Source of the DNA: Nitrosopumilus sp.
Lineage (GTDB): Archaea > Thermoproteota > Nitrososphaeria > Nitrososphaerales > Nitrosopumilaceae
Direction of reading: 5' to 3'
Assembly: GCA_965205215.1 (NCBI GenBank)
Contig: OZ242041.1
Coordinates: 1 to 64,000, forward strand
Length of the DNA: 64,000 nt
Shown here: one piece after another, positions 22,417 through 64,000 of the stretch
Layout: the number at the start of each line of letters is the position of its first letter
Numbering within the stretch: the stretch's first letter is position 1
The notes under the pieces: generated by a model
Seen by the model: only the letters and a program-made list of their open reading frames with translations
The model's database searches: none
What the model was told of the DNA's origin: nothing
Made by a program: the position numbers and the translations under genes

Positions 22417-22430
22417 ATTTCACTCTAATC

Positions 22431-22955: not shown

Positions 22956-23124
22956 TCGGTCATGATCATGGAGCTACAGGTGACGGCTTTGCGTCTTGGC
23001 CTTCCGGCATCCTCTCCTCTGTCTCGTACTCTTCGGCAGTTGTCCCGCCGTTGACGAATTTGGTCTTTGGCAGGCCAAGCGGCGACTGTTGTTGCGGCCG
23101 CTGCACCATGGATGGCGCACTTTT

Positions 23125-25002: not shown

Positions 25003-25168
25003 TTAAAAAGAAGATTTTGCATATGATATATCATCCGGTTGCAAAATATCAGAGTCGGCTCCCTGTTTCTGTAACGAGTGTGAGAATTTGTCACTAGATC
25101 AAAATGCCGTAAACATGTCGCACACTGACAAAACGGAGTTATGCCAAAGTTGACGTGCACGTTCAGAG

Positions 25169-25714: not shown

Positions 25715-25715
25715 C

Positions 25716-26021
25716 TTACTGATCCAATTGTGCAATGCCAATTTCCATGGCTTCGTCAGTCAGATCTACGTCGCGGCCCAGCATGCCAGATGCCCTCTCT
25801 GCGGTACCAGATTTCGGCGTAGGCATAGGAGCATCTTCAAAAAACATTCTCCAGAATAACTCCTTGGCAGAGATGTCGCTTTGGTCGTTGCTTTCATTCT
25901 CGTCAATACCAGAAGCTTCTAATGTATAGTCTATGGCAAGTTTATCAGATGGGCCAATCAGAATTCTAGAAACATAAATACCCACTGTGGAAAGTCCTTC
26001 TTCATACTTCAATGAAGACAT
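25716..26021 (-). CDS. Acidic 101-aa putative antitoxin
   Basis: Directly upstream of and coupled to the PIN gene; TTTAAA at 26045-26050. Confidence 0.65.
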   Translation of the reverse strand: MSSLKYEEGLSTVGIYVSRILIGPSDKLAIDYTLEASGIDENESNDQSDISAKELFWRMFFEDAPMPTPKSGTAERASGMLGRDVDLTDEAMEIGIAQLDQ

Positions 26022-26270
26022 GTATTGGATATAACATACTCAAATTTAAATCGCGTCACTAGATCAGTTGTAACTCCCGATTTTGCGATTCTTCCTTCCC
26101 TTGCACGACCTCTCGAGCTCTTCCCGTTTAGCACGGTTCATGCCTTGCCTGCAAGAGATCTGATTCACATACTTTGTTTGGACAGTTACGTGTTCACGAA
26201 CTTTGGCTTTTTAATACAGCTATACGGTCTAATATTATCGAGGTTCGTGCACTTGATTCATACAATGATC

Positions 26271-27525
26271 CGGCGCTGTCCAACTTTTCACCGCCAAAGT
26301 CACGAAAAGCTTAAAGATCATGACGCACCCGGATGGCAAAGCTTATTGATCATATTGTAGCCGCCACGCCAATGGCTTCCAAAAGAAGCAGGAAGGACGG
26401 CAAGAAAAGACAGGATGCCCATGTGCGGGCATGCAAGGCGGAGCGGCGAAGGCAGAAGATCAAGGAGTGCCGCGACTACAAGACGTACGAGAGGAGGCGA
26501 AAAGGCGGGGGCAGGGTGAAGAGGATTAGGATTAAACAGCTAACGAAACTGATCCGCGACGCCCTTCGAACGCCACCGATACGAACGTTTCCAGGATCGT
26601 GTGTGTTGGTGTGGACATGACATACCGCGGCCACTCGTACCGCAGACACGTCGAGTACCCGGATGAGCATTCAGGCTCCGTAGGCATGTACGGGCTAAAA
26701 AGAGTTCCCTTGAAATCCGGCCTCCACGGCTGGGCATCGGAGCTTGCAGGCGACATGGAGTTCGTGCTGGACCTTCTAGCCGGACAGGCCGGGGACTGCG
26801 CGCGCGGCACCCTGTTGGGCGACTCGTCGGGGTTCTCCATAGTCAAATATGAGGACTGGGAGGACGCCGGGCGCGGGATCATATCCGGGCGCGAGTTCAA
26901 CAAGCTGCACATACTGGTCGCGCCGCACGGCAGGATCGCGGCGTGCGCGGTAACCGCGGGGCGGAGGCACGACTCGCCTGTATTCCGCGAGATGTACGGG
27001 CGCATACCGCGTGGAGGCGGCCACGCCATACTGGACGCCGCGTACCTGCGCAGGGCAAACTGCGCGCAGATTGCGCGCAGCGAACGCAAGCCGGTCATAT
27101 GCCCAGAGAGGAACTCCCGGGCAAGGGGGCTGCATCCGATGGGCCGGATGCTCAAGTGGTACGAGGACGACCGCGACGGGTTTGGCAGGGCATGCCACCA
27201 GCGGAGCCCGGTCGAGGCCGCGTCCTCCGTCATCAAGGAGAGGTTTGGCGCCGTCGCGCGCGCAAAGACGTTCCGCATGAGGCAGCTGCAGCTCGCGCTA
27301 AAGTGCGTCTGCTGCAATCTCGTCGCCTGATTCCGCATCAGCCTACAGGGGGGCAGCGTACCCCCCAGCGTACGCTGTAGACGAGCTCTCCACGCGCGTC
27401 CAGGACCCGGAGATCTGCCGCCGGACACGCCGCAATTGTGGCAGAGACGGATCCGTCCACTGCGCCAAAGCCTGTCTAAATGTCCATAAAATCGGGGCGT
27501 GACTTGCAAGGGTTGGACGGCGCCG
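26271..27525 (+). mobile_element. IS5-family element with candidate terminal inverted repeats
   Basis: CGGCGCTGTCCAAC (26271-26284) vs GTTGGACGGCGCCG (27512-27525), 13/14 match; no clear target duplication. Confidence 0.6.
26372..27330 (+). pseudogene. Frameshifted IS5-family (DDE_Tnp_1-like) transposase
   Basis: Basic N-terminus in one frame; GDSSGF, KLH, HDSP, LDAAY, RSPVE..S.IK..FG in another; break near 26570-26620. Confidence 0.82.
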
Positions 27526-49100: not shown

Positions 49101-52100
49101 GCCGTCGCCCCAGCTGATTGTGTACTGGCCGCTGGCCGGGATCGTTATCGATTCACCCGGTTGGGTTGTCCTCCAGGTGGTGACAAAGCTGGAGCCGTCC
49201 GGTGCGCCGCGCGCCTGCGCCGGGTCGGTGTTGGCGCTGTCCGATATGGTAACCGTCATGGTGTCAGATGTGGTGGAGGTGCCGTCTGTGACCGTCAGGG
49301 TGAACACGACCGGCGTGTCGGAGACGACGTTGGGGGCCGTGAACGAGGGGGACAGCGTGTCGCCACCATCAAGCGTTATGGCCAGCGTGCCGTTGTGGGT
49401 CCACGCGTATGCCAGGACGTCCTCGGGGTCGGCGTCAGTAGCCGTTCCCGTCAGGGTCACCTCGGATCCTTCCGCGACGGACTGGTCCGACCCGGCGTCT
49501 GCGGCCGGCGGGCTGTTGGCGCTGTCCGATATGGTAACCGTCATGGTGTCAGATGTGGTGGAGGTGCCGTCTGTGACCGTCAGGGTGAACTCGACCGGCG
49601 TGGCGGAGACGACGTTGGGGGCCGTGAACGAGGGGGACAGCGTGTCGCCACCATCAAGCGTTATGGCCAGCGTGCCGTTGTGGGTCCACGCGTATGCCAG
49701 GACGTCCTCGGGGTCGGCGTCAGTAGCCGTTCCCGTCAGGGTCACCTCGGATCCTTCCGCGACGGACTGGTCCGACCCGGCGTCTGCGGCCGGCGGGCTG
49801 TTGGCGCTGTCCGATATGGTAACCGTCATGGTGTCAGATATGGTGGAGGTGCCGTCTGTGACCGTCAGGGTGAACACGACCGGCGTGTCGGAGACGACGT
49901 TGGGGGCCGTGAACGAGGGGGACAGCGTGTCGCCACCATCAAGCGTTATGGCCAGCGTGCCGTTGTGGGTCCACGCGTATGCCAGGACGTCCTCGGGGTC
50001 GGCGTCAGTAGCCGTTCCCGTCAGGGTCACCTCGGATCCTTCCGCGACGGACTGGTCCGACCCGGCGTCTGCGGCCGGCGGGCTGTTGGCGCTGTCCGAT
50101 ATGGTAACCGTCATGGTGTCAGATGTGGTGGAGGTGCCGTCTGTGACCGTCAGGGTGAACTCGACCGGCGTGGCGGAGACGACGTTGGGGGCCGTGAACG
50201 AGGGGGACAGCGTGTCGCCACCATCAAGCGTTATGGCCAGCGTGCCGTTGTGGGTCCACGCGTATGCCAGGACGTCCTCGGGGTCGGCGTCAGTAGCCGT
50301 TCCCGTCAGGGTCACCTCGGATCCTTCCGCGACGGACTGGTCCGACCCGGCGTCTGCGGCCGGCGGGCTGTTGGCGCTGTCCGATATGGTAACCGTCATG
50401 GTGTCAGATGTGGTGGAGGTGCCGTCTGTGACCGTCAGGGTGAACACGACCGGCGTGTCGGAGACGACGTTGGGGGCCGTGAACGAGGGGGACAGCGTGT
50501 CGCCACCATCAAGCGTTATGGCCAGCGTGCCGTTGTGGGTCCACGCGTATGCCAGGACGTCCTCGGGGTCGGCGTCAGTAGCCGTTCCCGTCAGGGTCAC
50601 CTCGGATCCTTCCGCGACGGACTGGTCCGACCCGGCGTCTGCGGCCGGCGGGCTGTTGGCGCTGTCCGATATGGTAACCGTCATGGTGTCAGATGTGGTG
50701 GAGGTGCCGTCTGTGACCGTCAGGGTGAACTCGACCGGCGTGGCGGAGACGACGTTGGGGGCCGTGAACGAGGGGGTCGGCGTGTCGCCGCCATCAAGCG
50801 TTATGGTCGAGGATCCGTTGTGGGTCCACGCGTATGCCAGGACGTCCTCGGGGTCGGCGTCAGTAGCCGTTCCCGTCAGGGTCACCTCGGATCCTTCCGC
50901 GACGGACTGGTCCGACCCGGCGTCTGCGGCCGGCGGGCTGTTGGCGCTGTCCGATATGGTAACCGTCATGGTGTCAGATGTGGTGGAGGTGCCGTCTGTG
51001 ACCGTCAGGGTGAACTCGACCGGCGTGTCGGAGACGACGTTGGGTGCCGTGAACGAGGGGGTCGGCGTGTCGCCGCCATCAAGCGTTATGGTCGAGGATC
51101 CGTTGTGGGTCCACGAGTATGCCAGGGTGTCCTCGGGGTCGGCGTCAGTAGCCGTTCCGGCCAACGTGACTGTATCGCCCTCGGCCACTGACTGGTCCGG
51201 CCCTGCCTCGACTGCCGGCGGGCTGTTGGCGCTGTCCGATATGGTAACCGTCATGGTGTCAGATATGGTGGAGGTGCCGTCTGTGACCGTCAGGGTGAAC
51301 TCGACCGGCGTGTCGGAGACGACGTTGGGTGCCGTGAACGAGGGGGACAGAGCGGCCGCGTCGTCCAGTGTGATGGCCAGCGTGCCGTTGTGGGTCCACG
51401 CGTAGTCCAGGGTGTCCTCGGGGTCGGCGTCAGTAGCCGTTCCCGTCAGGGTCACCTCGGATCCTTCCGCGACGGACTGGTCGGCGCCCGCGTCGACTGC
51501 CGGCGGGCTGTTGGCGCTGTCCGATATGGTAACCGTCATGGTGTCAGATGTGGTGGAGGTGCCGTCTGTGACCGTCAGGGTGAACTCGACTGGGACGTCA
51601 GAGACGACGTTGGGTGCCGTGAACGAGGGGGACAGAGCGGCCGCGTCGTCCAGTGTGATGGCCAGCGTGCCGTTGTGGGTCCACGCGTAGTCCAGGGTGT
51701 CCTCGGGGTCGGCGTCAGTAGCCGTTCCCGTCAGGGTCACCTCGGATCCTTCCGCGACGGACTGGTCGGCGCCCGCGTCGACTGCCGGCGGGCTGTTGGC
51801 GCTGTCCGATATGGTAACCGTCATGGTGTCAGATGTGGTGGAGGTGCCGTCTGTGACCGTCAGGGTGAACTCGACTGGGACGTCAGAGACGACGTTGGGT
51901 GCCGTGAACGAGGGGGACAGAGCGGCCGCGTCGTCCAGTGTGATGGCCAGCGTGCCGTTGTGGGTCCACGCGTAGTCCAGGGTGTCCTCGGGGTCGGCGT
52001 CAGTAGCCGTTCCCGTCAGGGTCACCTCGGATCCTTCCGCGACGGACTGGTCGGCGCCCGCGTCGACTGCCGGCGGGCTGTTGGCGCTGTCCGATATGGT

Positions 52101-55100
52101 AACCGTCATGGTGTCAGATGTGGTGGAGGTGCCGTCTGTGACCGTCAGGGTGAACTCGACTGGGACGTCAGAGACGACGTTGGGTGCCGTGAACGAGGGG
52201 GACAGAGCGGCCGCGTCGTCCAGTGTGATGGCCAGCGTGCCGTTGTGGGTCCACGTGTATGCCAGGGTGTCCTCGGGGTCGGCGTCAGTAGCCGTTCCGG
52301 CCAGCGTGACTGTATCGCCCTCGGCCACTGACTGGTCCGGCCCTGCCTCGACTGCCGGCGGGCTGTTGGCGCTGTCCTCGATGGTAACTGTCATGGTGTC
52401 AGATGTGGTGGAGGTGCCGTCTGTGACCGTCAGGGTGAACTCTACCGGCGTGGCGGAGACGACGTTGGGTGCCGTGAACGAGGGGGACAGCGTGTCGCCG
52501 CCATCAAGCGTTATGGTCGAGGATCCGTTGTGGGTCCACGCGTAGTCCAGGGTGTCCTCGGGGTCGGCGTCAGTAGCCGTTCCCGTCAGGGTCACCTCGG
52601 ATCCTTCCGCGACGGACTGGTCCGACCCGGCGTCTGCGGCCGGCGGGCTGTTGGCGCTGTCCGATATGGTAACCGTCATGGTGTCAGATGTGGTGGAGGT
52701 GCCGTCTGTGACCGTCAGGGTGAACTCTACCGGCGTGGCGGAGACGACGTTGGGTGCCGTGAACGAGGTGGACAGTGCAGCCGCGTCGTCCAGTGTGATG
52801 GCCAGCGTGCCGTTGTGGGTCCACGTGTATACCAGGGTGTCCTCGGGGTCGGCGTCACTCGAGGTTCCCGTCAGGGTCACCTCGGATCCTTCCGCTACGG
52901 ACTGGTCGGCGCCCGCGTCGACTGCCGGCGGGCTGTTGGCGCTGTCCGATATGGTAACCGTCATGGTGTCAGATGTGGTGGAGGTGCCGTCTGTGACCGT
53001 CAGGGTGAACTCTACCGGCGTGGCGGAGACGACGTTGGGTGCCGTGAACGAGGGGGACAGAGCGGCCGCGTCGTCCAGTGTGATGGCCAGCGTGCCGTTG
53101 TGGGTCCACGTGTATGCCAGGGTGTCCTCGGGGTCGGCGTCAGTAGCCGTTCCGGCCAGCGTGACTGTATCGCCCTCGGCCACTGACTGGTCCGGCCCTG
53201 CCTCGACTGCCGGCGGGCTGTTGGCGCTGTCCTCGATGGTAACTGTCATGGTGTCAGATGTGGTGGAGGTGCCGTCTGTGACCGTCAGGGTGAACTCTAC
53301 CGGCGTGGCGGAGACGACGTTGGGTGCCGTGAACGAGGTGGACAGTGCAGCCGCGTCGTCCAGTGTGATGGCCAGCGTGCCGTTGTGGGTCCACGTGTAT
53401 ACCAGGGTGTCCTCGGGGTCGGCGTCAGTAGCCGTTCCGGCCAGCGTGACTGTATCGCCCTCGGCCACTGACTGGTCCGACCCGGCGTCTGCGGCCGGCG
53501 GGCTGTTGGCGCTGTCCGATATGGTAACCGTCATGGTGTCAGATGTGGTGGAGGTGCCGTCTGTGACCGTCAGGGTGAACTCGACCGGCGTGGCGGAGAC
53601 GACGTTGGGTGCCGTGAACGAGGTGGACAGAGCGGCCGCGTCGTCCAGTGTGATGGCCAGCGTGCCGTTGTGGGTCCACGTGTATACCAGGGTGTCCTCG
53701 GGGTCGGCGTCAGTAGCCGTTCCCGTCAGGGTCACCTCGGATCCTTCCGCGACGGACTGATCCGACCCGGCGTCTGCGGCCGGCGGGCTGTTGGCGCTGT
53801 CCGATATGGTAACCGTCATGGTGTCAGATGTGGTGGAGGTGCCGTCTGTGACCGTCAGGGTGAACTCGACCGGCGTGGCGGAGACGACGTTGGGTGCCGT
53901 GAACGAGGGGGACAGCGTGTCGCCGCCATCAAGCGTTATGGTCGAGGATCCGTTGTGGGTCCACGAGTATGCCAGGGTGTCCTCGGGGTCGGCGTCAGTG
54001 GCGGTTCCGGCCAGCGTGACTGTATCGCCCTCGGCCACTGACTGGTCCGACCCGGCGTCTGCGGCCGGCGGGCTGTTGGCGCTGTCCGATATGGTAACCG
54101 TCATGGTGTCAGATGTGGTGGAGGTGCCGTCTGTGACCGTCAGGGTGAACTCGACTGGGACATCAGAGACGACGTTGGGTGCCGTGAACGAGGGGGACAG
54201 CGTGTCGCCGCCATCAAGCGTTATGGTCGAGGATCCGTTGTGGGTCCACGCGTAGTCCAGGGTGTCCTCGGGGTCGGCGTCAGTAGCCGTTCCCGTCAGG
54301 GTCACCTCGGATCCTTCCGCGACGGACTGGTCCGACCCGGCGTCTGCGGCCGGCGGGCTGTTGGCGCTGTCCGATATGGTAACCGTCATGGTGTCAGATG
54401 TGGTGGAGGTGCCGTCTGTGACCGTCAGGGTGAACTCGACCGGCGTGGCGGAGACGACGTTGGGTGCCGTGAACGAGGTGGACAGTGCAGCCGCGTCGTC
54501 CAGTGTGATGGCCAGCGTGCCGTTGTGGGTCCACGCGTATGCCAGGACGTCCTCGGGGTCGGCGTCACTCGAGGTTCCCGTCAGGGTCACCTCGGATCCT
54601 TCCGCTACGGACTGGTCGGCGCCCGCGTCGACTGCCGGCGGGCTGTTGGCGCTGTCCGATATGGTAACCGTCATGGTGTCAGATGTGGTGGAGGTGCCGT
54701 CTGTGACCGTCAGGGTGAACTCTACCGGCGTGGCGGAGACGACGTTGGGTGCCGTGAACGAGGTGGACAGTGCAGCCGCGTCGTCCAGTGTGATGGCCAG
54801 CGTGCCGTTGTGGGTCCACGTGTATGCCAGGGTGTCCTCGGGGTCGGCGTCACTCGAGGTTCCCGTCAGGGTCACCTCGGATCCTTCCGCGACGGACTGG
54901 TCCGACCCGGCGTCTGCGGCCGGCGGGCTGTTGGCGCTGTCCGATATGGTAACCGTCATGGTGTCAGATGTGGTGGAGAGCCCGTCTGTGACCGTCAGGG
55001 TGAACTCGACTGGGACGTCAGAATCGACGTTGGGTGCCGTGAACGAGGGGGTCGGCGTGTCGCCTCCATCAAGCGTTATGGCCAGCGTGCCGTTGCGGGT

Positions 55101-58100
55101 CCACGCGTATGCCAGGACGTCCTCGGGGTCGGCGTCAGTAGCCGTTCCGGCCAGCGCGACGGTCTCGCCCTCTGTCACGGACTGGTCCGGCCCTGCCTCG
55201 ACGGCCGGCGGATTATTCGGCAGGATGCCGGCGGTGGCCACTGTGACAGTCCCGGTGGCGGGGTCGGCGCCAAAGTCCGCCCCGTCGGCCCTGATCCTCA
55301 CCTGGTGCTCGCCCGCCTCCAGTCCGAGGCCCGGCCTGAGCCGCAGGACGCCGTCGGCGTCCACCTCGAACTTGTCGGAGTTGGGGCCGGCAGGATCCAC
55401 CGTGTAGGCCGGGTTGTGGCCGGCCAGGTACCCGTTCTGGGGCAGGATGGTGCCCGCGGCCCCGTCGCTGGCGGCGATGGTATGGCCGTCCAGGGTGACA
55501 TACCAGGGGCCCAGGTCCTGGTCGAAGAGGGTGGCGCCATCGAACATCGAGCTCATGTCGGCGGCGGCCGAGACGTTCCAGGGCGAGATATCCTGGTCAA
55601 AGGAGGAGGCGCCCGAGAACATGTAGGACGTGTCGGTGACTGCCGAGACGTCCCATCCCGATACGTCCCGGTCAAAGGAGGAGGCGCCATCGAACATGCC
55701 GGACATGGAGGTGACTGCCGAGACGTCCCATCCCGATACGTCGCCGTCAAAGGAGGAGGCGCCGTAGAACATGATGTTCATGTTGGTGACTGCCGAGACG
55801 TCCCATCCCGATACGTTGCCGTCAAAGGAGGAGGCGCCCGAGAACATGGCGTTCATGTTGGTGACTGCCGAGACGTCCCATCCCGATACGTCCCGGTCAA
55901 AGGAGGAGGCGCCCGAGAACATGGCCGGCATGGAGGTGACTGCCGAGACGTCCCATCCCGATACGTTGCCGTCAAAGGAGGAGGCGCCCGAGAACATGCC
56001 GGACATGTCGGTGACTGCCGAGACGTCCCATCCCGATACGTCGCCGTCAAAGGAGGAGGCGCCGTAGAACATGTAGGACATGTCTGCGATGCCCGAGACG
56101 TCCCATCCCGATACGTCGCCGTCAAAGGAGGAGGCGCCCGAGAACATCGAGGCCGTGCTGCCCGCCCCGGACAGGTCGGGGGCGTCCGCGGCCCTGTAGG
56201 CCATGTTGGACGCGCCCATAAAGGCCCTGTCCATGGTGGTCCAGGGGATGTCGCCCCACTGGTCTATCGAGGCCAGCCTGGCGGCGTTGGCAGGGTCGCC
56301 GGCCAGGGAGATCCTCTCAAAGCCGCCGGTGATCGAGATGGTGTGGTTGCCGGGCTGCCCGTAGGCGTGCGTCCGGTCGCCGGAGACGCCGGTCTGGACG
56401 GTGCCGTCGCCCCAGTCGATGTCATAGGCGGCCGTCGAGCCCCCGACGGGGATGCTCACCTGCTCGCCGGGGGCGGTGGTCCTCCAGGTGGTGACAAAGC
56501 TGTGGCCGTCCAGCACGTCGCGCGCGGCCGGCGGGACGTCGGCGATGGTGATTGTGACGGTGTCAGATATGGTGGAGGTGCCGTCGGTGACCGTCAGGGT
56601 GAACTCGATGGTAACGTCTGCGTCGACCTCCGGGGCGACAAACGACGGCGACAGCGTGCCGGCTCCGCTCATCTGGATGGCGGCGGTGCCGTTGTGGGTC
56701 CACGTGTAGTCCAGGACGTCCCCCGGGTCGGCGTCAGAAGCGGTCCCGGCCAGCGTGACGGTATCGCCCTCGGCCACGGACTGGTCCGGCCCTGCGTCTG
56801 CGGCCGGCGGGCGGTTGGCCGGGGCGGACCCCGTGACGGTGACGGTCGCGTCCCCGCTCCAGTCGCCGGAGGGGGCGCCGTCGTAGCGGGCCAGCAGCCT
56901 CACCTTGTAGGGCTGGTCCTCCTCCAGGCCTGTGATGGTGTGGCGCGGCTCGGCCGGGAAGGCGTTGCCCGACAGGTCCTCAAAGCCCTTGTAGGGCTCG
57001 CCCGCCCTGGCCCAGGATATCCTGTAGTCGGCGGGGCCCTCGGAGGGGGGCTCCCAGGAGGCCTCCAGCACGCCGGGGACCGAGCTGACCAGGGTAATCC
57101 TGCCTATGTCGCGGGGCCCGGGCGGCCCGGACGGCTCCAGCACGGCGGTGTTTACGGGCGGGTCGTTGGCCGGATCGTTCAGGATCGTGACGACCGCGGC
57201 GTCCGAGGCGGCGCCGCCGTAGCTGTCGGTGACGCTCAGGGTAAATGTGACGGTGGCGTTGCCGGCGTAGAGCCGGGGGGCGGCAAACGAGGCCGACGGG
57301 GCCGCCGGGTCGTCCAGGGTGATGCCCAGGTCCGGCCTGTCGTGCGTCCACGAGTAGGCCAGGGCGTACTCGGAGCCGGAGGCCGAGCCCTCCAGGGTCA
57401 CCTCGGAGCCCTCCACGACTGCCAGGTCGGCCCCGGCGTCGGCGGCCAGGCCGGCGTTGGCGCCGTCCGGGATGGTGATTGTGACGGTGTCAGATGCGGT
57501 GTCCGTCCCGTCGGTGACCGTCAGGGTGAACTCGACGGCGGTGGCCCCCAGGACGTCGGGCGCGGCAAACGAGGGGGACGGGGCCGACGGGTCGTCCAGC
57601 GTGATGCCCAGGTCCGGCCTGTCGTGGGTCCACGAATATGCCAGGACGTCCCCCGGGTCGGCGTCAGTGGCGGTCCCGGCCAGCGTGACGGTATCGCCCT
57701 CGGCCACGGTCCGGTCGGCGCCCGCGTCGACTGCCGGCGGGCTGTTGGCCGATCCCGTGACGGTGATGATCGCGTCCCCGCTCCAGGCGCCGGAGGTGCC
57801 GCTGTAGGTGGCGCGCACCTGCACCTTGTAGGGCTGGCCCGCCTCCAGACCGGTGATGGTATGGTCCGGCTCGGTCGGGTAGGCGTTGCCGTCCGGATCC
57901 CTGAAGGACGGGTAGGACTCGCCCACCTTGGCCCAGGTGACCCGGTAGCCGGCGGGGCCCTCGGTGGGAGGCTCCCAGGAGGCCTCCAGCACTCCGGGGA
58001 CCGAGCTGACCAGGGTGATCCTGCCGATGTCGCGGGAATCGCGCGGGCTGGGCGGCTCCAGCACGGCGGTGTTTACGGGCGGGTCGTTGGCAGGATCGTT

Positions 58101-61100
58101 CAGGATCGTGACGACCGCGGCGTCCGAGGCGGTCGCGCCGTACTGGTCGGTGACGCTCAGGGTAAAGGTGACGGTGGTGCTGCTGGCGTAGACCACCGGG
58201 GCGGCAAACGAGGGGGACAGTGCAGACGGGTCGTCCAGCGTGATGCCCAGGTCCGGCCTGTCGTGCGTCCACGAGTAGGCCAGGGCGTACTCGGAGCCGG
58301 AGGCCGAGCCCGCCAGGGTCACCTCGGAGCCCTCCCCGACTGCCAGGTCGGCTCCGGCGTCGGCGGCCAGGTCGGCGTTGGCGCCGTCCGGGATGGTGAT
58401 TGTGACGGTGTCAGATACGGTGGCCCTCCCGTCGGTGACCGTCAGGGTGAACTCGACGGCGGTGGCCCCCAGGACGTCGGGCGCGGCAAACGAGGGGGAC
58501 AGTGCAGACGGGTCGTCCAGCGTGACGTTCAGGTCCGGCCTGTCGTGGGTCCACGAATATGCCAGGACGTCCCCCGGGTCGGCGTCAGTGGCGGTCCCGG
58601 CCAGCGTGACGGTCTCGCCCTCGGCCACGGTCCGGTCGGCGCCCGCGTCGACTGCCGGCGGGCTGTTGACCTGCCCCACGACGGTGATGATCGCGTCCCC
58701 GCTCCAGGCGCCGGAGGGGCCTGCGTCGTAGCGGGCCAGCAGCCTCACCTTGTAGGGCTGGTCCTCCTCCAGGCCGGTGATGGTGTGGCGCGGCTCGGCC
58801 GGGAAGGCGTTGCCCGACAGGTCCTCAAAGCCCCTGTAGGGCTCGCCCACCTTGGCCCAGGATATCCGGTAGTCGGCGGGGCCGTCGGTGGGAGGCTCCC
58901 AGGAGGCCTCCAGCGCCCCGGGGGCCGAGCTGGACAGGGTGATCCTGCCTATGTCGCGGGGCCCTGGCGGCCCGGACGGCTCCAGCACGGCGGTGTTTAC
59001 GGGCGGGTCGTTGGCCGGATCGTTCAGGATTGTGACGACCGCGGCGTCCGAACCGGTCGCGTTGTACTGGTCGGTGGCGCTCAGGGTAAAGGTGACGGTG
59101 GCGTTGCCGGCGTAGAGCCGGGGGGCGGCAAACGAGGTGGACAGTGCAGCCGCGTCGTCCAGTGCGATGCCCAGATCCGGCCGGTCGTGCGTCCACGAGT
59201 AGGCCAGGACGTCCCCGGGGTAGGCGCCGGAGGCCGTTCCGGCCAGGAACACCTCGGATCCCTCTGCCACAGTCTGGTCGGCGCCGGCGCCGACAGTCGG
59301 ATGGCCCCTGGCGGATCCCGCGACGGTGATGATCGCGTCCCCGCTCCAGGCGCCGGAGGCGCCGTTGTAGACGGCGCGCATCTTCACCTTGTAGGGCTGG
59401 CCCTCCTCCAGGCCGGTGATGGTGTGGCGCGGCTCGGTCGGGTAGGCGTTGCCCGACAGGTCCTCAAATCCCCTGTAGGACTCGCCCGCCCTGGCCCAGG
59501 ATATCCGGTAGTTGGCGGGGCTGTCGGAGGGCTCCTCCCAGGAGGCCTCCAGCGCCCCGGGTACCGAGCTGGACAGGGTGATCCTGCCTATGTCGCGGGG
59601 CCCTGGCGGCCCGGGCGGCTCCAGCACGACGGTGTCTGACGGGTCGTTGGCAGGATCGTTCAGTATTGTGACGAGCGCGGTGTCCGAGGCGGCGGCCCCG
59701 AGGCTGTCGGTGACGGTCAGCGTAAAGGAGACGGGCGTGTCGGCGGTGACGTTGGGGGCGGTGAACGACGGGGAGAGCGTGTCGGCGCCCGAGACGGCGA
59801 TGCCCAGGTCCGGCCGGTCGTGGGTCCACCGGTAGGCGGGGGCATAGTAGTCCGAGCCGGTGGCGGCGCCCTCCAGGGTCACCCCGGAGCCCTCGGCCGC
59901 TGTCAGGTCGGCCCCGGCGTCGGCCGTCGGGGCGGCCGTATGGAGCACATCTATGGGCCGGTCGGCGGTGCCGGCTATCCCGCGGCCGGACAGGCCAAAG
60001 ACTGCGTCCTCGTCGACGTCCAGCTGGGGAGCGGACATGGCCGCCACCTCCGAGCGCTGCGCGTCGGCCAGCACGAAGGTGAGGGTGGCGCCGGAGGCCG
60101 GCCCCGCCTGGGCGCCGTCCAGCCGGACGCCGCCGGCGTCCCGGCCCTGCTCGCGGACGTGCAGGCGATCATGGTTGGCCGTCCCGTTGAGCGGCTCGCT
60201 GAAGGTGATGGTGAGCCTGCCGTCGCCTGTCGCGTAGGCGGCCGAGGCAAGCTCGGGTTCGGTGGAGGTGACCGTGACGGTCCTGGTGGCGGGGTCGGCG
60301 CCAAAGTACACCCCGGCGGCCAGGATTCTCACCTGGTGCTCGCCCGCCTCCAGTCCGAGGCCCGGCCTGAGCCGCAGGACGCCGTCGGCGTCCACCTCGA
60401 ACTTGTCGGAGTTGGGGCCGGCAGGGTCCACCGCGTAGGCCGGGCGGTGGCCGGCCAGGTACTCGTTCTGCGGCGAGATTGTGCCGACTGCCCCCCCGGC
60501 GGCGAGGGCATGGCCGTCCAGTGTGACATACCAGGGGCCCAGGTCCTGGTCAAAGAGGGTGGCGCCGCTGAACATGTTGTCCATGTAGAGTACAGAGGAG
60601 ACGTCCCATCCGGAGACGTCCTGGTTGAAGGAGGAGGCCCTGTTGAACATGTACTCCATGTAGAGTACAGAGGAGACGTCCCATCCGGAGACGTCCTGGT
60701 CAAAGGAGGAGGCGCCGTCGAACATGGCGAACGTTTCGGTGACGGCGCCGACGTCCCATCCGGAGATGTCCTGGTCAAAGGAGGAGGCGCCCGCGAACAT
60801 GATGGCCATGCTGGTCACCTGCGAGACGTCCCATCCGGAGACGTCCTGGTCAAAGGAGGAGGCGCCGCTGAACATGTTGCCCATGTCGGTGACGCCGGAC
60901 ACGTCCCAGGCGGACAGGTCGCCGTCAAAGGAGGAGGCGCCCGCGAACATGGATCGCATGTCGGTCACGCCCGAGACGTCCCAGGATGACAGGTTGCCGT
61001 CAAAGGAGGAGGCGCCGTTGAACATCGAGACCGTGCTGTCCACCCCGGTCAGGTCGGGCGCGTCGGCCGCCCGGTAGACCATGTTGGCGGCCCCGGCAAA

Positions 61101-61685
61101 CGCCCCGTCCATGTCAGTCCAGGAGATGGCGCCCCACTGGTCTATCGAGGCCAGACTGGCGGCGTTGGCCCTGTCGCCGGCCAGGGAGATCCTCTCAAAG
61201 CCGCCGGTGATCGAGACGGTGTGGTTGCCGGGCTGCCCGTAGGTGTGCGTCTGGTCGCCGGAGACGCCGGTCTGGACGGTGCCGTCGCCCCAGTCGATGT
61301 TATAGGAGGCCGTCGAGCCCCCGACGGGGATGGTTATCGTCTGGTCGGCGGCGGTGGTCCTCCAGGTGGTGACAAACGGGCCGGTCCCGGACTCGGCAAA
61401 CGCGTAGCCGGGCAGCAGTCCGTCCCCGGCCAAATCCAGCGCGGGCATCAGCATGGATCCGTGCCCCGCCGGATGCGGCGCCGTGTGCGGCCCAAGATCC
61501 TGCTGCGTCAGCAGGTAACCCGCAGACGCGGCTGCCAGCAGCAGCAGCGCCGCCGCCAGCACGGCCATCATCAGGAGTCCCGACGTGCCGCTGCGCCCCT
61601 GTCCCGGCCGCGCGCGCCAGGCCGCCTGCCGGCGCCGCGGACGCGGGATCGCCGCGCGGTTTGATCCAAAATGCGTTATGTTCAT
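46149..61685 (-). CDS. Giant secreted repeat protein A (~5180 aa): 3 DUF285/BspA-type blocks, >30 PKD-like domains, 6 FN3 domains
   Basis: Leader ending PGYAFA-E; 25-aa WDVS.VT.M..MF..A.SF repeats; ATG 61685 preferred, ORF open to 61733. Confidence 0.9.
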   Translation of the reverse strand: MNITHFGSNRAAIPRPRRRQAAWRARPGQGRSGTSGLLMMAVLAAALLLLAAASAGYLLTQQDLGPHTAPHPAGHGSMLMPALDLAGDGLLPGYAFAESGTGPFVTTWRTTAADQTITIPVGGSTASYNIDWGDGTVQTGVSGDQTHTYGQPGNHTVSITGGFERISLAGDRANAASLASIDQWGAISWTDMDGAFAGAANMVYRAADAPDLTGVDSTVSMFNGASSFDGNLSSWDVSGVTDMRSMFAGASSFDGDLSAWDVSGVTDMGNMFSGASSFDQDVSGWDVSQVTSMAIMFAGASSFDQDISGWDVGAVTETFAMFDGASSFDQDVSGWDVSSVLYMEYMFNRASSFNQDVSGWDVSSVLYMDNMFSGATLFDQDLGPWYVTLDGHALAAGGAVGTISPQNEYLAGHRPAYAVDPAGPNSDKFEVDADGVLRLRPGLGLEAGEHQVRILAAGVYFGADPATRTVTVTSTEPELASAAYATGDGRLTITFSEPLNGTANHDRLHVREQGRDAGGVRLDGAQAGPASGATLTFVLADAQRSEVAAMSAPQLDVDEDAVFGLSGRGIAGTADRPIDVLHTAAPTADAGADLTAAEGSGVTLEGAATGSDYYAPAYRWTHDRPDLGIAVSGADTLSPSFTAPNVTADTPVSFTLTVTDSLGAAASDTALVTILNDPANDPSDTVVLEPPGPPGPRDIGRITLSSSVPGALEASWEEPSDSPANYRISWARAGESYRGFEDLSGNAYPTEPRHTITGLEEGQPYKVKMRAVYNGASGAWSGDAIITVAGSARGHPTVGAGADQTVAEGSEVFLAGTASGAYPGDVLAYSWTHDRPDLGIALDDAAALSTSFAAPRLYAGNATVTFTLSATDQYNATGSDAAVVTILNDPANDPPVNTAVLEPSGPPGPRDIGRITLSSSAPGALEASWEPPTDGPADYRISWAKVGEPYRGFEDLSGNAFPAEPRHTITGLEEDQPYKVRLLARYDAGPSGAWSGDAIITVVGQVNSPPAVDAGADRTVAEGETVTLAGTATDADPGDVLAYSWTHDRPDLNVTLDDPSALSPSFAAPDVLGATAVEFTLTVTDGRATVSDTVTITIPDGANADLAADAGADLAVGEGSEVTLAGSASGSEYALAYSWTHDRPDLGITLDDPSALSPSFAAPVVYASSTTVTFTLSVTDQYGATASDAAVVTILNDPANDPPVNTAVLEPPSPRDSRDIGRITLVSSVPGVLEASWEPPTEGPAGYRVTWAKVGESYPSFRDPDGNAYPTEPDHTITGLEAGQPYKVQVRATYSGTSGAWSGDAIITVTGSANSPPAVDAGADRTVAEGDTVTLAGTATDADPGDVLAYSWTHDRPDLGITLDDPSAPSPSFAAPDVLGATAVEFTLTVTDGTDTASDTVTITIPDGANAGLAADAGADLAVVEGSEVTLEGSASGSEYALAYSWTHDRPDLGITLDDPAAPSASFAAPRLYAGNATVTFTLSVTDSYGGAASDAAVVTILNDPANDPPVNTAVLEPSGPPGPRDIGRITLVSSVPGVLEASWEPPSEGPADYRISWARAGEPYKGFEDLSGNAFPAEPRHTITGLEEDQPYKVRLLARYDGAPSGDWSGDATVTVTGSAPANRPPAADAGPDQSVAEGDTVTLAGTASDADPGDVLDYTWTHNGTAAIQMSGAGTLSPSFVAPEVDADVTIEFTLTVTDGTSTISDTVTITIADVPPAARDVLDGHSFVTTWRTTAPGEQVSIPVGGSTAAYDIDWGDGTVQTGVSGDRTHAYGQPGNHTISITGGFERISLAGDPANAARLASIDQWGDIPWTTMDRAFMGASNMAYRAADAPDLSGAGSTASMFSGASSFDGDVSGWDVSGIADMSYMFYGASSFDGDVSGWDVSAVTDMSGMFSGASSFDGNVSGWDVSAVTSMPAMFSGASSFDRDVSGWDVSAVTNMNAMFSGASSFDGNVSGWDVSAVTNMNIMFYGASSFDGDVSGWDVSAVTSMSGMFDGASSFDRDVSGWDVSAVTDTSYMFSGASSFDQDISPWNVSAAADMSSMFDGATLFDQDLGPWYVTLDGHTIAASDGAAGTILPQNGYLAGHNPAYTVDPAGPNSDKFEVDADGVLRLRPGLGLEAGEHQVRIRADGADFGADPATGTVTVATAGILPNNPPAVEAGPDQSVTEGETVALAGTATDADPEDVLAYAWTRNGTLAITLDGGDTPTPSFTAPNVDSDVPVEFTLTVTDGLSTTSDTMTVTISDSANSPPAADAGSDQSVAEGSEVTLTGTSSDADPEDTLAYTWTHNGTLAITLDDAAALSTSFTAPNVVSATPVEFTLTVTDGTSTTSDTMTVTISDSANSPPAVDAGADQSVAEGSEVTLTGTSSDADPEDVLAYAWTHNGTLAITLDDAAALSTSFTAPNVVSATPVEFTLTVTDGTSTTSDTMTVTISDSANSPPAADAGSDQSVAEGSEVTLTGTATDADPEDTLDYAWTHNGSSTITLDGGDTLSPSFTAPNVVSDVPVEFTLTVTDGTSTTSDTMTVTISDSANSPPAADAGSDQSVAEGDTVTLAGTATDADPEDTLAYSWTHNGSSTITLDGGDTLSPSFTAPNVVSATPVEFTLTVTDGTSTTSDTMTVTISDSANSPPAADAGSDQSVAEGSEVTLTGTATDADPEDTLVYTWTHNGTLAITLDDAAALSTSFTAPNVVSATPVEFTLTVTDGTSTTSDTMTVTISDSANSPPAADAGSDQSVAEGDTVTLAGTATDADPEDTLVYTWTHNGTLAITLDDAAALSTSFTAPNVVSATPVEFTLTVTDGTSTTSDTMTVTIEDSANSPPAVEAGPDQSVAEGDTVTLAGTATDADPEDTLAYTWTHNGTLAITLDDAAALSPSFTAPNVVSATPVEFTLTVTDGTSTTSDTMTVTISDSANSPPAVDAGADQSVAEGSEVTLTGTSSDADPEDTLVYTWTHNGTLAITLDDAAALSTSFTAPNVVSATPVEFTLTVTDGTSTTSDTMTVTISDSANSPPAADAGSDQSVAEGSEVTLTGTATDADPEDTLDYAWTHNGSSTITLDGGDTLSPSFTAPNVVSATPVEFTLTVTDGTSTTSDTMTVTIEDSANSPPAVEAGPDQSVAEGDTVTLAGTATDADPEDTLAYTWTHNGTLAITLDDAAALSPSFTAPNVVSDVPVEFTLTVTDGTSTTSDTMTVTISDSANSPPAVDAGADQSVAEGSEVTLTGTATDADPEDTLDYAWTHNGTLAITLDDAAALSPSFTAPNVVSDVPVEFTLTVTDGTSTTSDTMTVTISDSANSPPAVDAGADQSVAEGSEVTLTGTATDADPEDTLDYAWTHNGTLAITLDDAAALSPSFTAPNVVSDVPVEFTLTVTDGTSTTSDTMTVTISDSANSPPAVDAGADQSVAEGSEVTLTGTATDADPEDTLDYAWTHNGTLAITLDDAAALSPSFTAPNVVSDTPVEFTLTVTDGTSTISDTMTVTISDSANSPPAVEAGPDQSVAEGDTVTLAGTATDADPEDTLAYSWTHNGSSTITLDGGDTPTPSFTAPNVVSDTPVEFTLTVTDGTSTTSDTMTVTISDSANSPPAADAGSDQSVAEGSEVTLTGTATDADPEDVLAYAWTHNGSSTITLDGGDTPTPSFTAPNVVSATPVEFTLTVTDGTSTTSDTMTVTISDSANSPPAADAGSDQSVAEGSEVTLTGTATDADPEDVLAYAWTHNGTLAITLDGGDTLSPSFTAPNVVSDTPVVFTLTVTDGTSTTSDTMTVTISDSANSPPAADAGSDQSVAEGSEVTLTGTATDADPEDVLAYAWTHNGTLAITLDGGDTLSPSFTAPNVVSATPVEFTLTVTDGTSTTSDTMTVTISDSANSPPAADAGSDQSVAEGSEVTLTGTATDADPEDVLAYAWTHNGTLAITLDGGDTLSPSFTAPNVVSDTPVVFTLTVTDGTSTISDTMTVTISDSANSPPAADAGSDQSVAEGSEVTLTGTATDADPEDVLAYAWTHNGTLAITLDGGDTLSPSFTAPNVVSATPVEFTLTVTDGTSTTSDTMTVTISDSANSPPAADAGSDQSVAEGSEVTLTGTATDADPEDVLAYAWTHNGTLAITLDGGDTLSPSFTAPNVVSDTPVVFTLTVTDGTSTTSDTMTVTISDSANTDPAQARGAPDGSSFVTTWRTTQPGESITIPASGQYTISWGDGQVDTGVSGTRTHSYDVPGTYTVSISDGITRIVLDGHPDAKKLVSIEQWGSARWESMDSAFAWAANMVYRATDVPNLSRVTDMDRMFHRAASFNGDISDWDVSAATTMSAMFRSASSFDQPLNAWDVSSVTDMSDMFAGARSFDQPLNAWDVSSVTDMSAMFVSARSFDQPLNAWDVSSVTDMSRMFHASSFDQDISSWDVSSVTDMSHMFDIADSFDQPLNAWDVSAATTMSGMFLHADSFDQPLNAWDVSSVTDMSAMFAGATSFNGDISSWDVSGVASTAGMFDSAASFNGDISDWDVSAAADMSDMFRGAASFNGDISDWDVSAATTMMRMFAGASSFDQPLNAWDVSAAADLFGMFGRASSFNQDLSAWDVSAAADMSHMFTGASSFDQNLGSWYIVLDGAAARDGDEALTVGHISAQNAFLDGQGPTYGLGPDADSSSFEIENSTLRLKPAPDGHAKSSYTVTITSTGDFGAGNSRTLEVTVPGPPANRQPTADAGPDLAVAEGDTVTLAGTAADADPGDVLVYSWTHNGTLAIQVAGSDTLTPSFTAPPVDSDVPVEFTLTVTDGTAASTDTATVTVSDVPAVSLPPTADAGPDLTVAEGSAVTLSGIAIHAGDRPATYSWSHDSALGIPITGSDTLTPSFTAPNVDSDTAVTFTLSVTDPRNATATDSVIITIADGANSPPTAGAGSDRAVAEGNAVALAGTAYDADPGDTLAYTWTHDSALGIPITGSDTLAPSFVAPLVDADTPVTFTLSVTDTRNATATATVIITITDIPPSSVPGSPRGLSVSPAASGTLDVSWQPPPSDGGERITGYTVQWKEGAGSWDAPADIGQATVTGTAHSITGLADGTPYAVRVIAINAVGSGEPSPEAAATPRDPRHVGGITLSSTQPGTILASWDAPAEAPRDYRVSWAKAGDPYLTWTDLTGNAFPTEPSWTITGLEEDEEYKVKVRARYDGGGGPGDWSVEATIRVAGSGQG
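49231..55215. repeat. 21 tandem 285-bp units (95-aa PKD-like domains)
   Basis: TTGGCGCTGTCC anchor recurs at 49231, 49516 ... 54931 with exact 285-bp spacing. Confidence 0.93.
56830..59880. repeat. Tandem PKD/FN3 super-repeat (~921-924 bp period)
   Basis: Four FN3 copies (PRDIGRITL/SRDIGRITL) interleaved with WTHDRPDL-type PKD domains. Confidence 0.8.
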
Positions 61686-61690
61686 TTTAT

Positions 61691-61718
61691 GGCTTTCATA
61701 ATGCCCATTATGATGCGG
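61691..61718. promoter_or_regulatory. dif/Xer-like palindromic site 1
   Basis: GGCTTTCATAA-TGCCCA-TTATGATGCGG (11-6-11), 5 bp upstream of the gene A ATG. Confidence 0.55.
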
Positions 61719-61839
61719 GATTTGGAACCACATGCAGGTCCGGCGGGTTCATCACATTCGAAATCCTGCATCATAACGCGCGGGGGCGGGCAGCCCACTT
61801 CGTAATGTTTTTATGTATTTTATGCAAACGTTCAACATC

Positions 61840-61867
61840 GTGTATGATAATGGGCATTATGACGCCA
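61840..61867. promoter_or_regulatory. dif/Xer-like palindromic site 2 (inverted relative to site 1)
   Basis: GTGTATGATAA-TGGGCA-TTATGACGCCA; spacer is the reverse complement of the site 1 spacer. Confidence 0.55.
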
Positions 61868-61973
61868 AAATAGAGCTATAGTGCCGGATATATTGCATAA
61901 TTCACGTCCATAACCATGGCCGGGATCAAAAGCCCTCAAGGGACAGACCTGCCAAGCAGAGGCGGACTTTGAT

Positions 61974-62034
61974 CCTTTTTTCTCCCCTTCTCACCTTCTC
62001 CCCTTCTCTCCCCCTCCCCCCCCCCCCACTCCCC
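61974..62034. repeat. Polypyrimidine tract with C12 run (62016-62027)
   Basis: ~60 nt almost purely C/T; minus strand has multiple G4+ runs. Confidence 0.7.
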
Positions 62035-62517
62035 GTACCACGCACGGCATGGCAGCGGCCAAGGCGGCCGGACCCGCGGCGCCGGCAGAGGACGGGGCCT
62101 CTCCCATGCACGGCGCCGGGTCCGGGCGCAGGTACCTCCCCCCTGCGCGGAGGGACGGCCGCCCCATGCACGAAAAACCAGAGGGGCGACGGCATGCGGC
62201 GCCGTACCGGCGGCGGCATGCGGCTCCCCGGGGCACGCGGCGCAGGGTTCGGCACGAAGGCACTCATCCGGTATGTCGCAGAAGTGAAGCGGCGGTTCGG
62301 AAATGGGCGCGGTCCCGGACGGGGCGCCCCACTCCCCACCTACGCGCGCGCGAGCTGCAAATGACGCGCCGCATGCGGCGCGTTGCGCAGCCTGCTGCCC
62401 GGATGCGCGCGGGGGCGCTTCCCAGCTGGGCCCGCCAGGCCGCAGCCCGGCAGGGTGGCGGCTTCCCATGATTGAACCGCACAACAGAAATAAACATGAT
62501 GGGCAAGAGTCTGGCAT

Positions 62518-64000
62518 ATGATCCGGGCGCAAAGGGCCCCGCTGCCTGGCGGCGCGGGTACAGGGGCGCTGCTGGTGCCCCTGGCGGTGGCAGTCGCGCT
62601 GACGGCAGTGGTTCTGGGGACGGCGCAGCCATACTTGCACAGCCTGTCCGGGGATGTCGACGCGCCATACCCGGACACGCCGGCCGCCGCCCCCGGGTGG
62701 CACGCCTTCGCGCAGTCCGTCCAGGCCGTGCTGGACCTGAGGCCGGCCGGCCACATCTCCGACGGCGATCCCGGCGCCCCGGAGCTCGACGGCGCGACAG
62801 ACATAGCCACATTCGAGACCGGCGGGCACGTCTACGCGGCCGTCGCGTCGTTTGACGACGACGGCGTCCAGATCCTCAACGTCACCGACCCGGCCAACGT
62901 CTCCGGGGTCGGTAGCATCACCGACGGCGATCCCGGCACCCCGGAGCTTGACACCGCAAGCGGCATCGCCACCTTCGAGGCCGGCGGGCACGTCTACGCG
63001 GCCGTCGCGTCAGACGCCGACGACGGCGTGCAGATCCTCAACCTCACCGACCCGGCCAACATCGCCGGGGTCGGCAGCGTCAACGACGGCGATCCCGGCG
63101 TCCCGGAGCTCGACGGCGCCCGCGGCATCGCCACATTCGAGACCGGCGGGCGCGTCTACGCGGCCGTCGCCGCGTCCGGCGACGACGCGGTCCAGATCCT
63201 CGACCTCACCGACCCGGCCAACGTCTCCGGGGCCGGCAGCATCACCGACGGAGATCCCGGCGCCCCGGCGCTCAACGGCGCAAGCGACATCGACACATTC
63301 GAGACCGGCGGGCACGTCTACGCGGCCGTCGCGTCAGACTACGACGATGCCGTCCAGATCCTCAACCTCACCGACCCGGCCAACATAGCCGGGACCGACA
63401 GCATCGCCGACGGCGATCCGGGCGGCCCGAGCATCGGCGGCGCGCTGGGCATCGCCACATTCGAGACCGGCGGGCACGTCTACGCGGCCGTCGCGTCGTT
63501 TGACGACGACGCAGTCCAGATCCTCAACGTCACCGACCCGGCCAACATCTCCGTGGCCGGCAGCATCGCCGACGGCGATCCCGGCGCCCCGGCGCTCAAC
63601 GGCGCGTTCGGCATCGCCACCTTCGAGATCGGAGAGCGGCACGTCTACGCGGCCGTCGCGTCAATCTACGATGATGCCGTCCAGATCCTCAACCTCACCG
63701 ACCCGGCCAACATCACCGGGGCCGGCCACGTCGCCGACGGCGATCCCGGCGCCCATGAGCTCGACGGCGCAAGCGACGTCACCACCTTTGAGACCGGCGG
63801 CCGCACCTACGCGGCCGTCACGTCATCCCGCGACAACGGAGTCCAGATCGTCCAGCTGGCCGCCGCGCGCGCCCCGCCGGCCGTCGACGCCGGCCCCGAC
63901 CAGGCCGTCCGGGAGGGAACCGAGGTCGCGCTCAACGGAACTGCCTCCGGCCCGGATCCCGGCGACAGCATCTCCTACCTGTGGAGCCACGACCGGCCCG
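62518..64000 (+). CDS. Secreted repeat protein D (3' truncated, absent from ORF track): 7x 54-aa LVIVD-like propeller repeats, then PKD-like domain
   Basis: MIRAQRAPL..LLVPLAVAVALTAVVLG..PGWHAFA-Q; DGDPG repeats at 62761, 62923, 63085, 63247, 63409, 63571, 63736; no stop before window end. Confidence 0.88.
   Translation, partial: MIRAQRAPLPGGAGTGALLVPLAVAVALTAVVLGTAQPYLHSLSGDVDAPYPDTPAAAPGWHAFAQSVQAVLDLRPAGHISDGDPGAPELDGATDIATFETGGHVYAAVASFDDDGVQILNVTDPANVSGVGSITDGDPGTPELDTASGIATFEAGGHVYAAVASDADDGVQILNLTDPANIAGVGSVNDGDPGVPELDGARGIATFETGGRVYAAVAASGDDAVQILDLTDPANVSGAGSITDGDPGAPALNGASDIDTFETGGHVYAAVASDYDDAVQILNLTDPANIAGTDSIADGDPGGPSIGGALGIATFETGGHVYAAVASFDDDAVQILNVTDPANISVAGSIADGDPGAPALNGAFGIATFEIGERHVYAAVASIYDDAVQILNLTDPANITGAGHVADGDPGAHELDGASDVTTFETGGRTYAAVTSSRDNGVQIVQLAAARAPPAVDAGPDQAVREGTEVALNGTASGPDPGDSISYLWSHDRP

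Follow-up and report, generated by a model that had tools for sequence, protein, structure and literature searches.

Programmed DNA inversion is a textbook bacterial strategy for switching surface structures, and the bacterial promoters inverted by tyrosine recombinases include fimS of Escherichia coli, which is acted upon by FimB and FimE, and the mpl promoters of Mycoplasma penetrans. Such an enzyme recognizes the arms of its core sites, and the overlap regions of the two partners must be identical for strand exchange. Another known arrangement is that of the DNA-looping operator pairs of the gal, ara and lac type. We analyzed a 64,000-nucleotide stretch of DNA from an archaeon, Nitrosopumilus sp. 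(contig OZ242041.1; hereafter the window), in which two short inverted sites near 61.7 kb enclose a promoter-like segment at the head of a string of giant genes. An active invertible promoter switch is the best single reading of this locus, one that we hold tentatively: a site-specific tyrosine recombinase would use the two sites as its core sites, and the intervening 131 bp would form an invertible promoter segment.

The genome (G000) is a single contig of 2,098,239 bp (~2.1 Mb) with 60% GC, and the window covers its first 64 kb. Nop56/58 and RadA are encoded in the window and AmoA elsewhere in the genome, and the host is therefore an ammonia-oxidizing archaeon. Literature searches found no published archaeal promoter inversion. 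The relevant passages of a review of archaeal tyrosine recombinases state in general terms only that these enzymes drive phase variation (PMC8371274), and a survey of invertons has archaea only in its reference list (PMC11602134). For Xer/dif, the passages of Cortez et al. 2010 that treat its distribution give XerC/D for bacteria and XerA for Euryarchaeota and Crenarchaeota (PMC2958812).

Paired sites and their cassette family

The proximal site (61696-61713), which adjoins gene A, reads TCATAATGCCCATTATGA, with CATAA/TTATG arms around the asymmetric centre TGCCCA, and the distal site (61845-61862) reads TGATAATGGGCATTATGA, with a centre, TGGGCA, that is the exact inverse of the proximal one. 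These sites and the other non-coding features described below have no strand assigned. An earlier note on this DNA, made from the letters alone, had described the sites as having an 11-6-11 architecture, spacers identical when inverted, a distance of 149 bp and further similarity in their flanks. The sequence bears all of this out, with GGCTTTCATAA-TGCCCA-TTATGATGCGG at 61691-61718 and GTGTATGATAA-TGGGCA-TTATGACGCCA at 61840-61867, 149 bp start to start, and with an inverted repeat that extends to 33 nt at 82% (61696-61728 / 61830-61862). The 16-mer TCATAATGCCCATTAT is found exactly once per strand in the window (61696-61711 on the plus strand and 61847-61862 on the minus strand), where 0.06 matches are expected by chance and where the observed count was reached in 0/100 shuffles; genome-wide, allowing up to one mismatch, it has a single additional match. 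The cluster of CATAA/TTATG pentamers that the note had seen here is the densest in the genome, with 10 pentamers in 260 bp, the next-best window holding 6 and the genome mean being 1.54 per kb.

One point in the earlier note needs correction, in that each site is itself an 8-2-8 near-palindrome (TCATAATG-CC-CATTATGA), and over their 18-bp cores the partners are 17/18 identical when inverted vs 15/18 when compared directly. With cores so nearly palindromic, the inverted orientation of the pair therefore rests on the central CC/GG, plus weak flanks. When the arms were tested for likeness to dif, the inner 6 nt proved palindromic and the outer parts only weakly so, with a 6-bp spacer present.

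A genome-wide scan for 18-mers with an inverted partner 120-180 bp away (at least 16/18 matching) found five homologous ~185-bp cassettes, each upstream of a giant gene. Two are of an A type (61696, with a spacing of 149 bp, and 1973311, with 148 bp), whose sites TTACAATGCCCATTGTAA / TTACAATGGGCATTGTAA are perfect palindromes apart from the centre, and three are of a B type (1227653 and 1109718, both with 148 bp, and 981720, with 147 bp), whose sites read GCATAA-GGATCA-TTAT(G/A)C. All of the giant genes downstream are longer than 2000 codons, and the layout is the same in 5/5. Homology between the cassettes spans from the proximal site to ~25 bp past the distal site and, between types, stops at a conserved outer flank of that site (61863-61880, CGCCAAAATAGAGCTATA), in which G(C/G)CA(A/C)AATAG is present in 5/5 cassettes. 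Interior identity is 0.67 in direct alignment vs 0.40 when flipped within the A type, 0.85-0.94 vs ~0.4 within the B type, and ~0.44 between the two types.

Two analogous site pairs were found via the recombinase gene in genus relatives of other species, here G002 and G107. The G002 locus consists of an 1837-codon minus-strand frame, CATAATGGCTATTATG, then CGTAATAGCCATTATG 167 bp on, and then a plus-strand recombinase gene; in G107, TAATTAAGATTA and TAATCTTAATTA lie 167 bp apart, ~130 bp upstream of the recombinase gene. Among these seven cassettes (five in G000 and one each in G002 and G107), the 6-bp centre is TGCCCA, GGATCA, TGGCTA or TTAAGA, and despite this divergence the central 10 nt of the partners agree at 10/10 positions when inverted vs 6-8/10 when direct, in 7/7. 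CATAA/TTATG arms are found in 6/7 proximal sites, and the exceptions recorded for the arms are both sites of the 1973311 cassette (TACAA/TTGTA) and the proximal site of G107. Over 18 positions, the partners are identical at 16-18 in four G000 cassettes and at 15 in the 981720 cassette. Conserved arms together with a variable, partner-matched, asymmetric centre are, to judge from sequence, the anatomy expected of simple tyrosine-recombinase core sites. One recombinase monomer would bind each CATAA/TTATG arm, and strand exchange would take place within the 6-bp asymmetric centre TGCCCA, which is identical in both partners. Since the partners are inverted, recombination would flip the interior.

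The near-palindromes lend themselves to another reading, in which the cassette is a fixed regulatory module and the sites are operators of a dimeric or tetrameric protein that represses giant-gene transcription, or sets its level, by looping out the 148-bp promoter region, with no inversion. The earlier note had named operators of a dimeric regulator as its alternative; this remains the main rival, and we consider it unlikely. It draws on the near-perfect palindromy of the sites (0-2 arm mismatches in 5/6 of the cassettes scored in the 8-2-8 register), on the rigid spacing of 147-149 bp (167 bp in the other species), which corresponds to ~14 and ~16 helical turns and places both sites on the same face, and on a third half-site with phased CATAA/TTATG pentamers at 61676, 61687, 61697 and 61708. 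However, a symmetric regulator gives no reason for non-palindromic centres that vary by type and are matched between partners. A transcription-factor gene, or other conventional regulator, recurring beside the cassettes was not found either, as a Pfam scan of the neighbours returned an Mrr-like fragment, DndB and three family-less ORFs only.

The cassettes could also be relics, i.e., a decayed or frozen switch that formerly recombined, or a small terminal-inverted-repeat element, persisting as duplicated upstream DNA. Paralogy extends from the giant genes to their upstream regions, every copy has the same orientation, and 3/5 cassettes have no recombinase gene nearby. Nevertheless, the sites are the best-conserved part of the cassette even though interiors are ~44% identical between types, and the conservation of the sites and the matching of partners argue for current selection or homogenization. 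Genome scans showed neither target-site duplications nor copies in unrelated contexts. On this evidence a relic is improbable. Recombinase pseudogene remnants were sought on the distal side of the recombinase-less cassettes and none was found (tblastn E of at least 0.24).

Some further matches and repeats were noted in this work. A 20-nt stretch at 2018807-2018826 (locus L003, 1498-1517) agrees with the distal site and the outer flank adjoining it (GCGTCAT-ATGCCCATTATC) at 19/20 positions; this match, estimated to be too good for chance, lies inside an apparently coding, low-GC region. In G002, a tandem repeat of GGCAGGTTTGG (x8; L212, 5915-6005) lies between the site pair and the recombinase gene, and the equivalent place in the window cassette is occupied by a pyrimidine tract (61980-62011) with a period of ~8 nt. 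An exact-pattern scan of genome contigs with the 18-mer returned at least 119 loci in unrelated bacteria, which we set aside as chance matches, and a scan of metagenome contigs for AATGCCCATT-N130-144-AATGGGCATT returned 18 loci, approximately the chance number, with palindromic arms in none.

Promoter-like interior and candidate recombinase

The interior (61714-61844), the 131-bp segment that recombination would invert, is homologous to the four other interiors in the same orientation. It contains a BRE/TATA-like element (61803-61824) that was scored in both directions with a promoter matrix built from 409 genes of this genome with a free upstream region. The AT content of those 409 upstream regions is highest from -29 to -23, positions -34 to -32 are A-rich, and most mRNAs of this genome are therefore leaderless. 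Read toward gene A, the element scores 15.7 bits (61807-61822, predicted start near 61786), and read away from gene A, it scores 10.8 bits (61803-61818, predicted start near 61839), with the 99.9th percentile of the matrix score at random genome positions being 8.9. The earlier note had placed a TATA-like TTTTTATGTATTTTATG at 61808-61824 reading away from gene A; its position holds, whereas the direction given there, the lower-scoring of the two, is not supported, and the direction of the promoter is ambiguous. The sites bracket the only strong BRE/TATA-like element next to gene A, so that inverting the segment would alter whether transcription enters the 33-kb gene string, or how far away it starts. 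In the B type, 207-452 nt of GC-rich DNA with a G12-14 run separate the cassette from the beginning of the giant gene, which has no TATA of its own; the cassette therefore contains the only promoter-like DNA upstream of it. Small ORFs starting in the sites or at 61774 were dropped, as they are not conserved between cassettes.

In the interior, part of the proximal site's inner flank is also repeated in inverted form: the 25 nt at 61757-61781 are 84% complementary to 61703-61727 and carry a third CATAA half-site, with CATAACGCGC kept in 4/5 cassettes. This copy bears on an RNA-level reading, in which the two sites pair in one leader, or the proximal site pairs with 61757-61781, and so control the translation or stability of the giant-gene mRNA. 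The whole cassette is predicted to fold at -70.9 kcal/mol (z = -4.9) and the predicted leftward leader (61790-61680) at -34.9 kcal/mol (z = -2.6), and RNAalifold run on the seven cassettes keeps a ~21-pair long-range stem, with two-sided changes in 18/33 predicted pairs. In addition, the differences between partner sites are transitions only in five independent cases, all one way, as fits G-U pairing on one strand; these are too few to use. However, any inverted repeat, including matched recombination sites, gives such folding figures, and site-site pairing leaves unexplained the palindromic arms that are conserved across species. The inner hairpins are not common to the A and B types, and no promoter was identified outside the cassette, where a transcript spanning the two sites would have to start. 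We regard an RNA element as distinctly improbable.

The earlier note had also looked to a XerA-type enzyme acting in trans, and XerA as the enzyme is not supported, since the genome encodes no canonical XerA (best NF040815 score 33.3 bits vs a cut-off of 220). The absence of a match agrees with the lack of xerA in Thaumarchaea given in the same passages of Cortez et al. 2010 (PMC2958812). The enzyme of an invertible switch would probably instead be one of five ~500-aa paralogs (84430, 601720, 1223141, 1225329 and 1973859) that make up an atypical tyrosine-recombinase family, acting in trans in the window and cis-proximal at two sister cassettes. Recombinase genes are found 385 bp from the 1973311 cassette and 867 bp from the 1227653 cassette, and 5/5 paralogs are within 2.5 kb of a gene of at least 1500 codons.

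Searches with profile models and a predicted structure place the candidate among tyrosine recombinases. PF00589 matches it at 31.9 bits (cut-off 27.1), with a weak SAM-like N-terminal domain, and the XerA, XerC and XerD models score 26-34 bits. An AlphaFold model generated with 19 sequences has a pLDDT of 77, and the Foldseek matches of this model are XerA (5hxy, 4a8e), lambda Int, XerH and Cre (E = 1e-6 to 1e-3), along with IntI, with XerA the closest. In 19/19 family sequences, K272, H351, R354, H377 and Y383 are invariant.

This invariance bears on the looping reading as well. The protein that bridges the operators could possibly be a recombinase-like protein serving as a non-catalytic regulator, for which the Asp that the family has instead of Arg-I would speak; still, an invariant Tyr, His-x-x-Arg, His and Lys is unexpected after a loss of catalysis.

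The family is present in 29/100 genus relatives, often in multiple copies. Among 25 homologue loci in relatives, 6 hold a tRNA gene, one of which abuts the recombinase frame, suggesting that some family members are integrases of mobile elements; from sequence, the tRNA genes also hint that the family is catalytically active. Any exact 12-nt inverted pair occurs upstream of 7/32 family genes vs 2/31 in the downstream control. At the locus of the divergent paralog (602 kb), no site pair was found. A GTACGTCAACGT pair upstream of the 85-kb paralog was rejected as chance, being neither palindromic nor AT-rich.

Evidence on orientation and the case against inversion

Several of our results weigh against an active switch, the first being that no inversion was seen. 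The assembled contigs of two runs from one study, which bear on the window cassette only, show the reference orientation only: the Logan contig across the cassette is 1152 bp long in run X1 (61271-62422) and 757 bp long in run X2 (61271-62027), with 0 differences in each, and no strand-changing joint in 61690-61870 is listed among the Logan contigs of these runs. No RNA run was among those listed as containing the stretch. Contigs drop minority variants, and the best-matching run may be the genome's own source sample; we count this result as weak negative evidence. All seven cassettes also share one orientation relative to their flanks or to the recombinase gene, and the TATA-like element lies beside the distal site in all five G000 cassettes and in G002. 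In G107, the strongest promoter-like element is beside the opposite site, in an interior too diverged to call a flip, and the direct and flipped alignments of the G107 and G002 interiors to the others score within the shuffle range. DNA searches of relatives for homologous cassettes were negative for the A type in 40 relatives and for the B type in 150 genus relatives, and the centre-pair pattern likewise had no homologue in 150 relatives; without homologues at the DNA level, the comparison of orientation between species is limited to G002 and G107.

The promoter-like element is a second difficulty for the switch. It scores well both ways, and its preferred direction is inconsistent across the five cassettes, with scores of 10.8, 8.2, 15.3, 12.7 and 12.8 away from the giant gene and of 15.7, 10.5, 12.1, 11.6 and 10.7 toward it. 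A flip might therefore make little difference. Good scores in both directions, and a single orientation in all cassettes and in the contigs, also speak for looping operators.

The candidate enzyme raises a third set of difficulties. The family has an invariant Asp229 at the Arg-I position and does not show the canonical R...K...HxxR...H/W...Y signature; this position was called from an alignment in which GLD falls opposite GIR in an ordinary integrase that the genome also encodes (hhalign probability 79%). Cre requires both of its catalytic arginines (PMC2965224). IntDOT was set aside as a precedent for an active recombinase without Arg-I, since PMC2034462 has no passage on arginine that bears it out. 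By sequence, the invariant R270 might substitute for Arg-I. The paralog nearest to the window cassette is 22.6 kb away, past the gene D string, and a cassette-like pair lies within 900 bp upstream of only 3/32 recombinase genes, plus that at 1227653, whose near site is 867 bp away.

Compared with what marks an inverton, the locus has inverted repeats around a short segment (17/18, 131 bp), and its family has an associated recombinase gene, which is adjacent at 2/5 G000 cassettes as well as in G002 and G107; only one orientation was found in the contigs of the two runs, in the five G000 cassettes and in G002. The recombinase-driven switch proposed in the earlier note has gained core-site anatomy, inverted identical centres, a bracketed promoter, a five-member family and recombinase synteny, and it lacks an observed inversion. 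That the segment inverts, which orientation would be ON and which paralog would act are inferences only. Explanations other than a switch, fixed operators, a relic and an RNA element are, even taken together, very improbable.

In run X2, contigs of higher depth differ from the window at 10-16 positions (60900-61400 and 62350-62900) and then diverge, with a loose end at 61376. These represent a second strain or paralogous giant genes in the same sample.

Genomic surroundings and comparison with known systems

Gene A, on the minus strand, is a giant surface protein gene with an open frame of 5194 codons (46149-61733) that likely spans 46149-61685. We take the ATG at 61685 as its likely start on account of the Arg-rich N-terminus, whose DNA is conserved in two downstream giant genes, the coding stretch 61560-61657 being 77-85% identical to their 5' ends; the proximal site lies 11 bp upstream of this start codon. 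The repeats of the protein were judged by eye to be BspA/DUF285-like, PKD-like and FN3-like. Gene A heads a string of three giant genes (28893-61733, ~33 kb). Gene D, on the plus strand, is a giant gene of 3752 codons that begins at 62518, runs to the end of the window at 64000 and continues to 73776 in the genome; it is followed by a 2471-codon gene and then, beyond the window, by the recombinase paralog at 84430-86007. The two genes diverge as the earlier note had them, with the caveat that a GC-rich spacer of ~590 bp (61926-62517) stands between the AT-rich cassette region and gene D. This spacer has no coding-like codon bias and contains a pyrimidine tract and a C12 run (62016-62027).

That run is one of 62 homopolymer G or C runs of at least 10 nt in the genome. 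On the plus strand, C-runs occupy the arc that crosses position 0, between ~1.53 Mb and 0.41 Mb, and G-runs the arc between 0.48 and 1.48 Mb, a distribution that therefore indicates a strand switch at the origin (~0.42 Mb) and near 1.5 Mb. Several of these runs are found no more than ~100 nt upstream of the start of a giant gene (692856, 982246, 1227960 and 1956570). An ORB-like inverted pair, TTGGAGTGGAAATGAAGG / CCTTCGTTTCCACTCCAC (418874-419027, 136 bp apart), lies 1 kb from the genome's sole Cdc6_C gene and probably marks the replication origin.

These landmarks bear on whether the 61.7-kb locus might be a chromosomal dif site for XerA dimer resolution, or a replication origin with ORB elements. 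The 11-6-11-like architecture with its CATAA-N6-TTATG core, in an AT-rich region with inverted repeats, would suit either. However, for dif there is no XerA, and there are ten sites in five pairs instead of one; for an origin, the one Cdc6_C gene lies elsewhere, at 420075, near an ORB-like inverted pair of its own (418874/419010); and the poly-G/C strand switches place the origin at ~0.42-0.48 Mb and the terminus at ~1.5 Mb, far from 61.7 kb. Both identities are extremely improbable, and we reject them as far as sequence evidence can go.

Two other features were observed in the genome. At 21681-26500 in the window, a tRNA-Ser(GCT) gene is followed by a low-GC island (40-50% vs 60%) with GNAT and PIN-domain genes and family-less ORFs; no integrase was found in it, and it is possibly the remnant of an integrated element. 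A dispersed palindromic element of ~40 nt, with the core AATCATAGAGCTCTATGATT and the flanks CCCGGAAA/TTTCCGGG, is present in 25 places in the genome (e.g., 625903, 626042, 626165, 963591, 1128174 and 1222978), with some copies just past giant genes and near an integrase gene (1128888-1130138).

If the locus does switch, ammonia-oxidizing archaea with giant adhesins would have bet-hedging control of the cell surface, and gene control in Thaumarchaea, which lack XerA, would be shown to make use of a divergent recombinase clade. The known chemistry of the enzyme family would be widened by a member lacking Arg-I, and the sites would be compact archaeal recombination sites with programmable 6-bp centres. 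It is possible, and we put this forward with somewhat more reserve than the switch itself, that the five dif-like cassettes are the first archaeal inverton family, phase-varying giant adhesin operons, flipped by a hitherto uncharacterized, Arg-I-less clade of ~500-aa recombinases and using the 6-bp crossover as a private address for each type. If there is no flipping, the cassettes would still be a conserved architecture of looped operators that serves the genome's largest genes, with some protein reading it.

Set beside the systems with which we opened, the locus shares with the gal, ara and lac looping operators two palindromic sites on the same helical face, ~150 bp apart and around a promoter. 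Unlike those systems, it has no cognate conventional repressor gene that we could find, and it has asymmetric, partner-matched centres and synteny with a recombinase. With Xer/dif it shares a 6-bp spacer between two arms that are imperfectly inverted, as well as a CATAA...TTATG core, and XerA structures are the closest to the candidate enzyme. However, dif is one site at the terminus, whereas the ten sites here form five inverted pairs at the 5' ends of genes, with no XerA orthologue and with an enzyme family that is patchy (29/100 genus relatives) and multi-copy and is thus not a housekeeping gene. In contrast to bacterial invertons, the cassettes here belong to an archaeon that has a BRE/TATA promoter and makes mostly leaderless mRNAs, each site is a full dif-like palindromic core site and not a plain inverted repeat, and the recombinase is a ~500-aa protein with Asp at Arg-I, inversion not having been observed. 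Similar to bacterial invertons, the locus has short inverted repeats around a promoter segment within their range of ~130-300 bp, upstream of surface-structure genes, a recombinase gene beside some copies, and several homologous switch-like cassettes in one genome.

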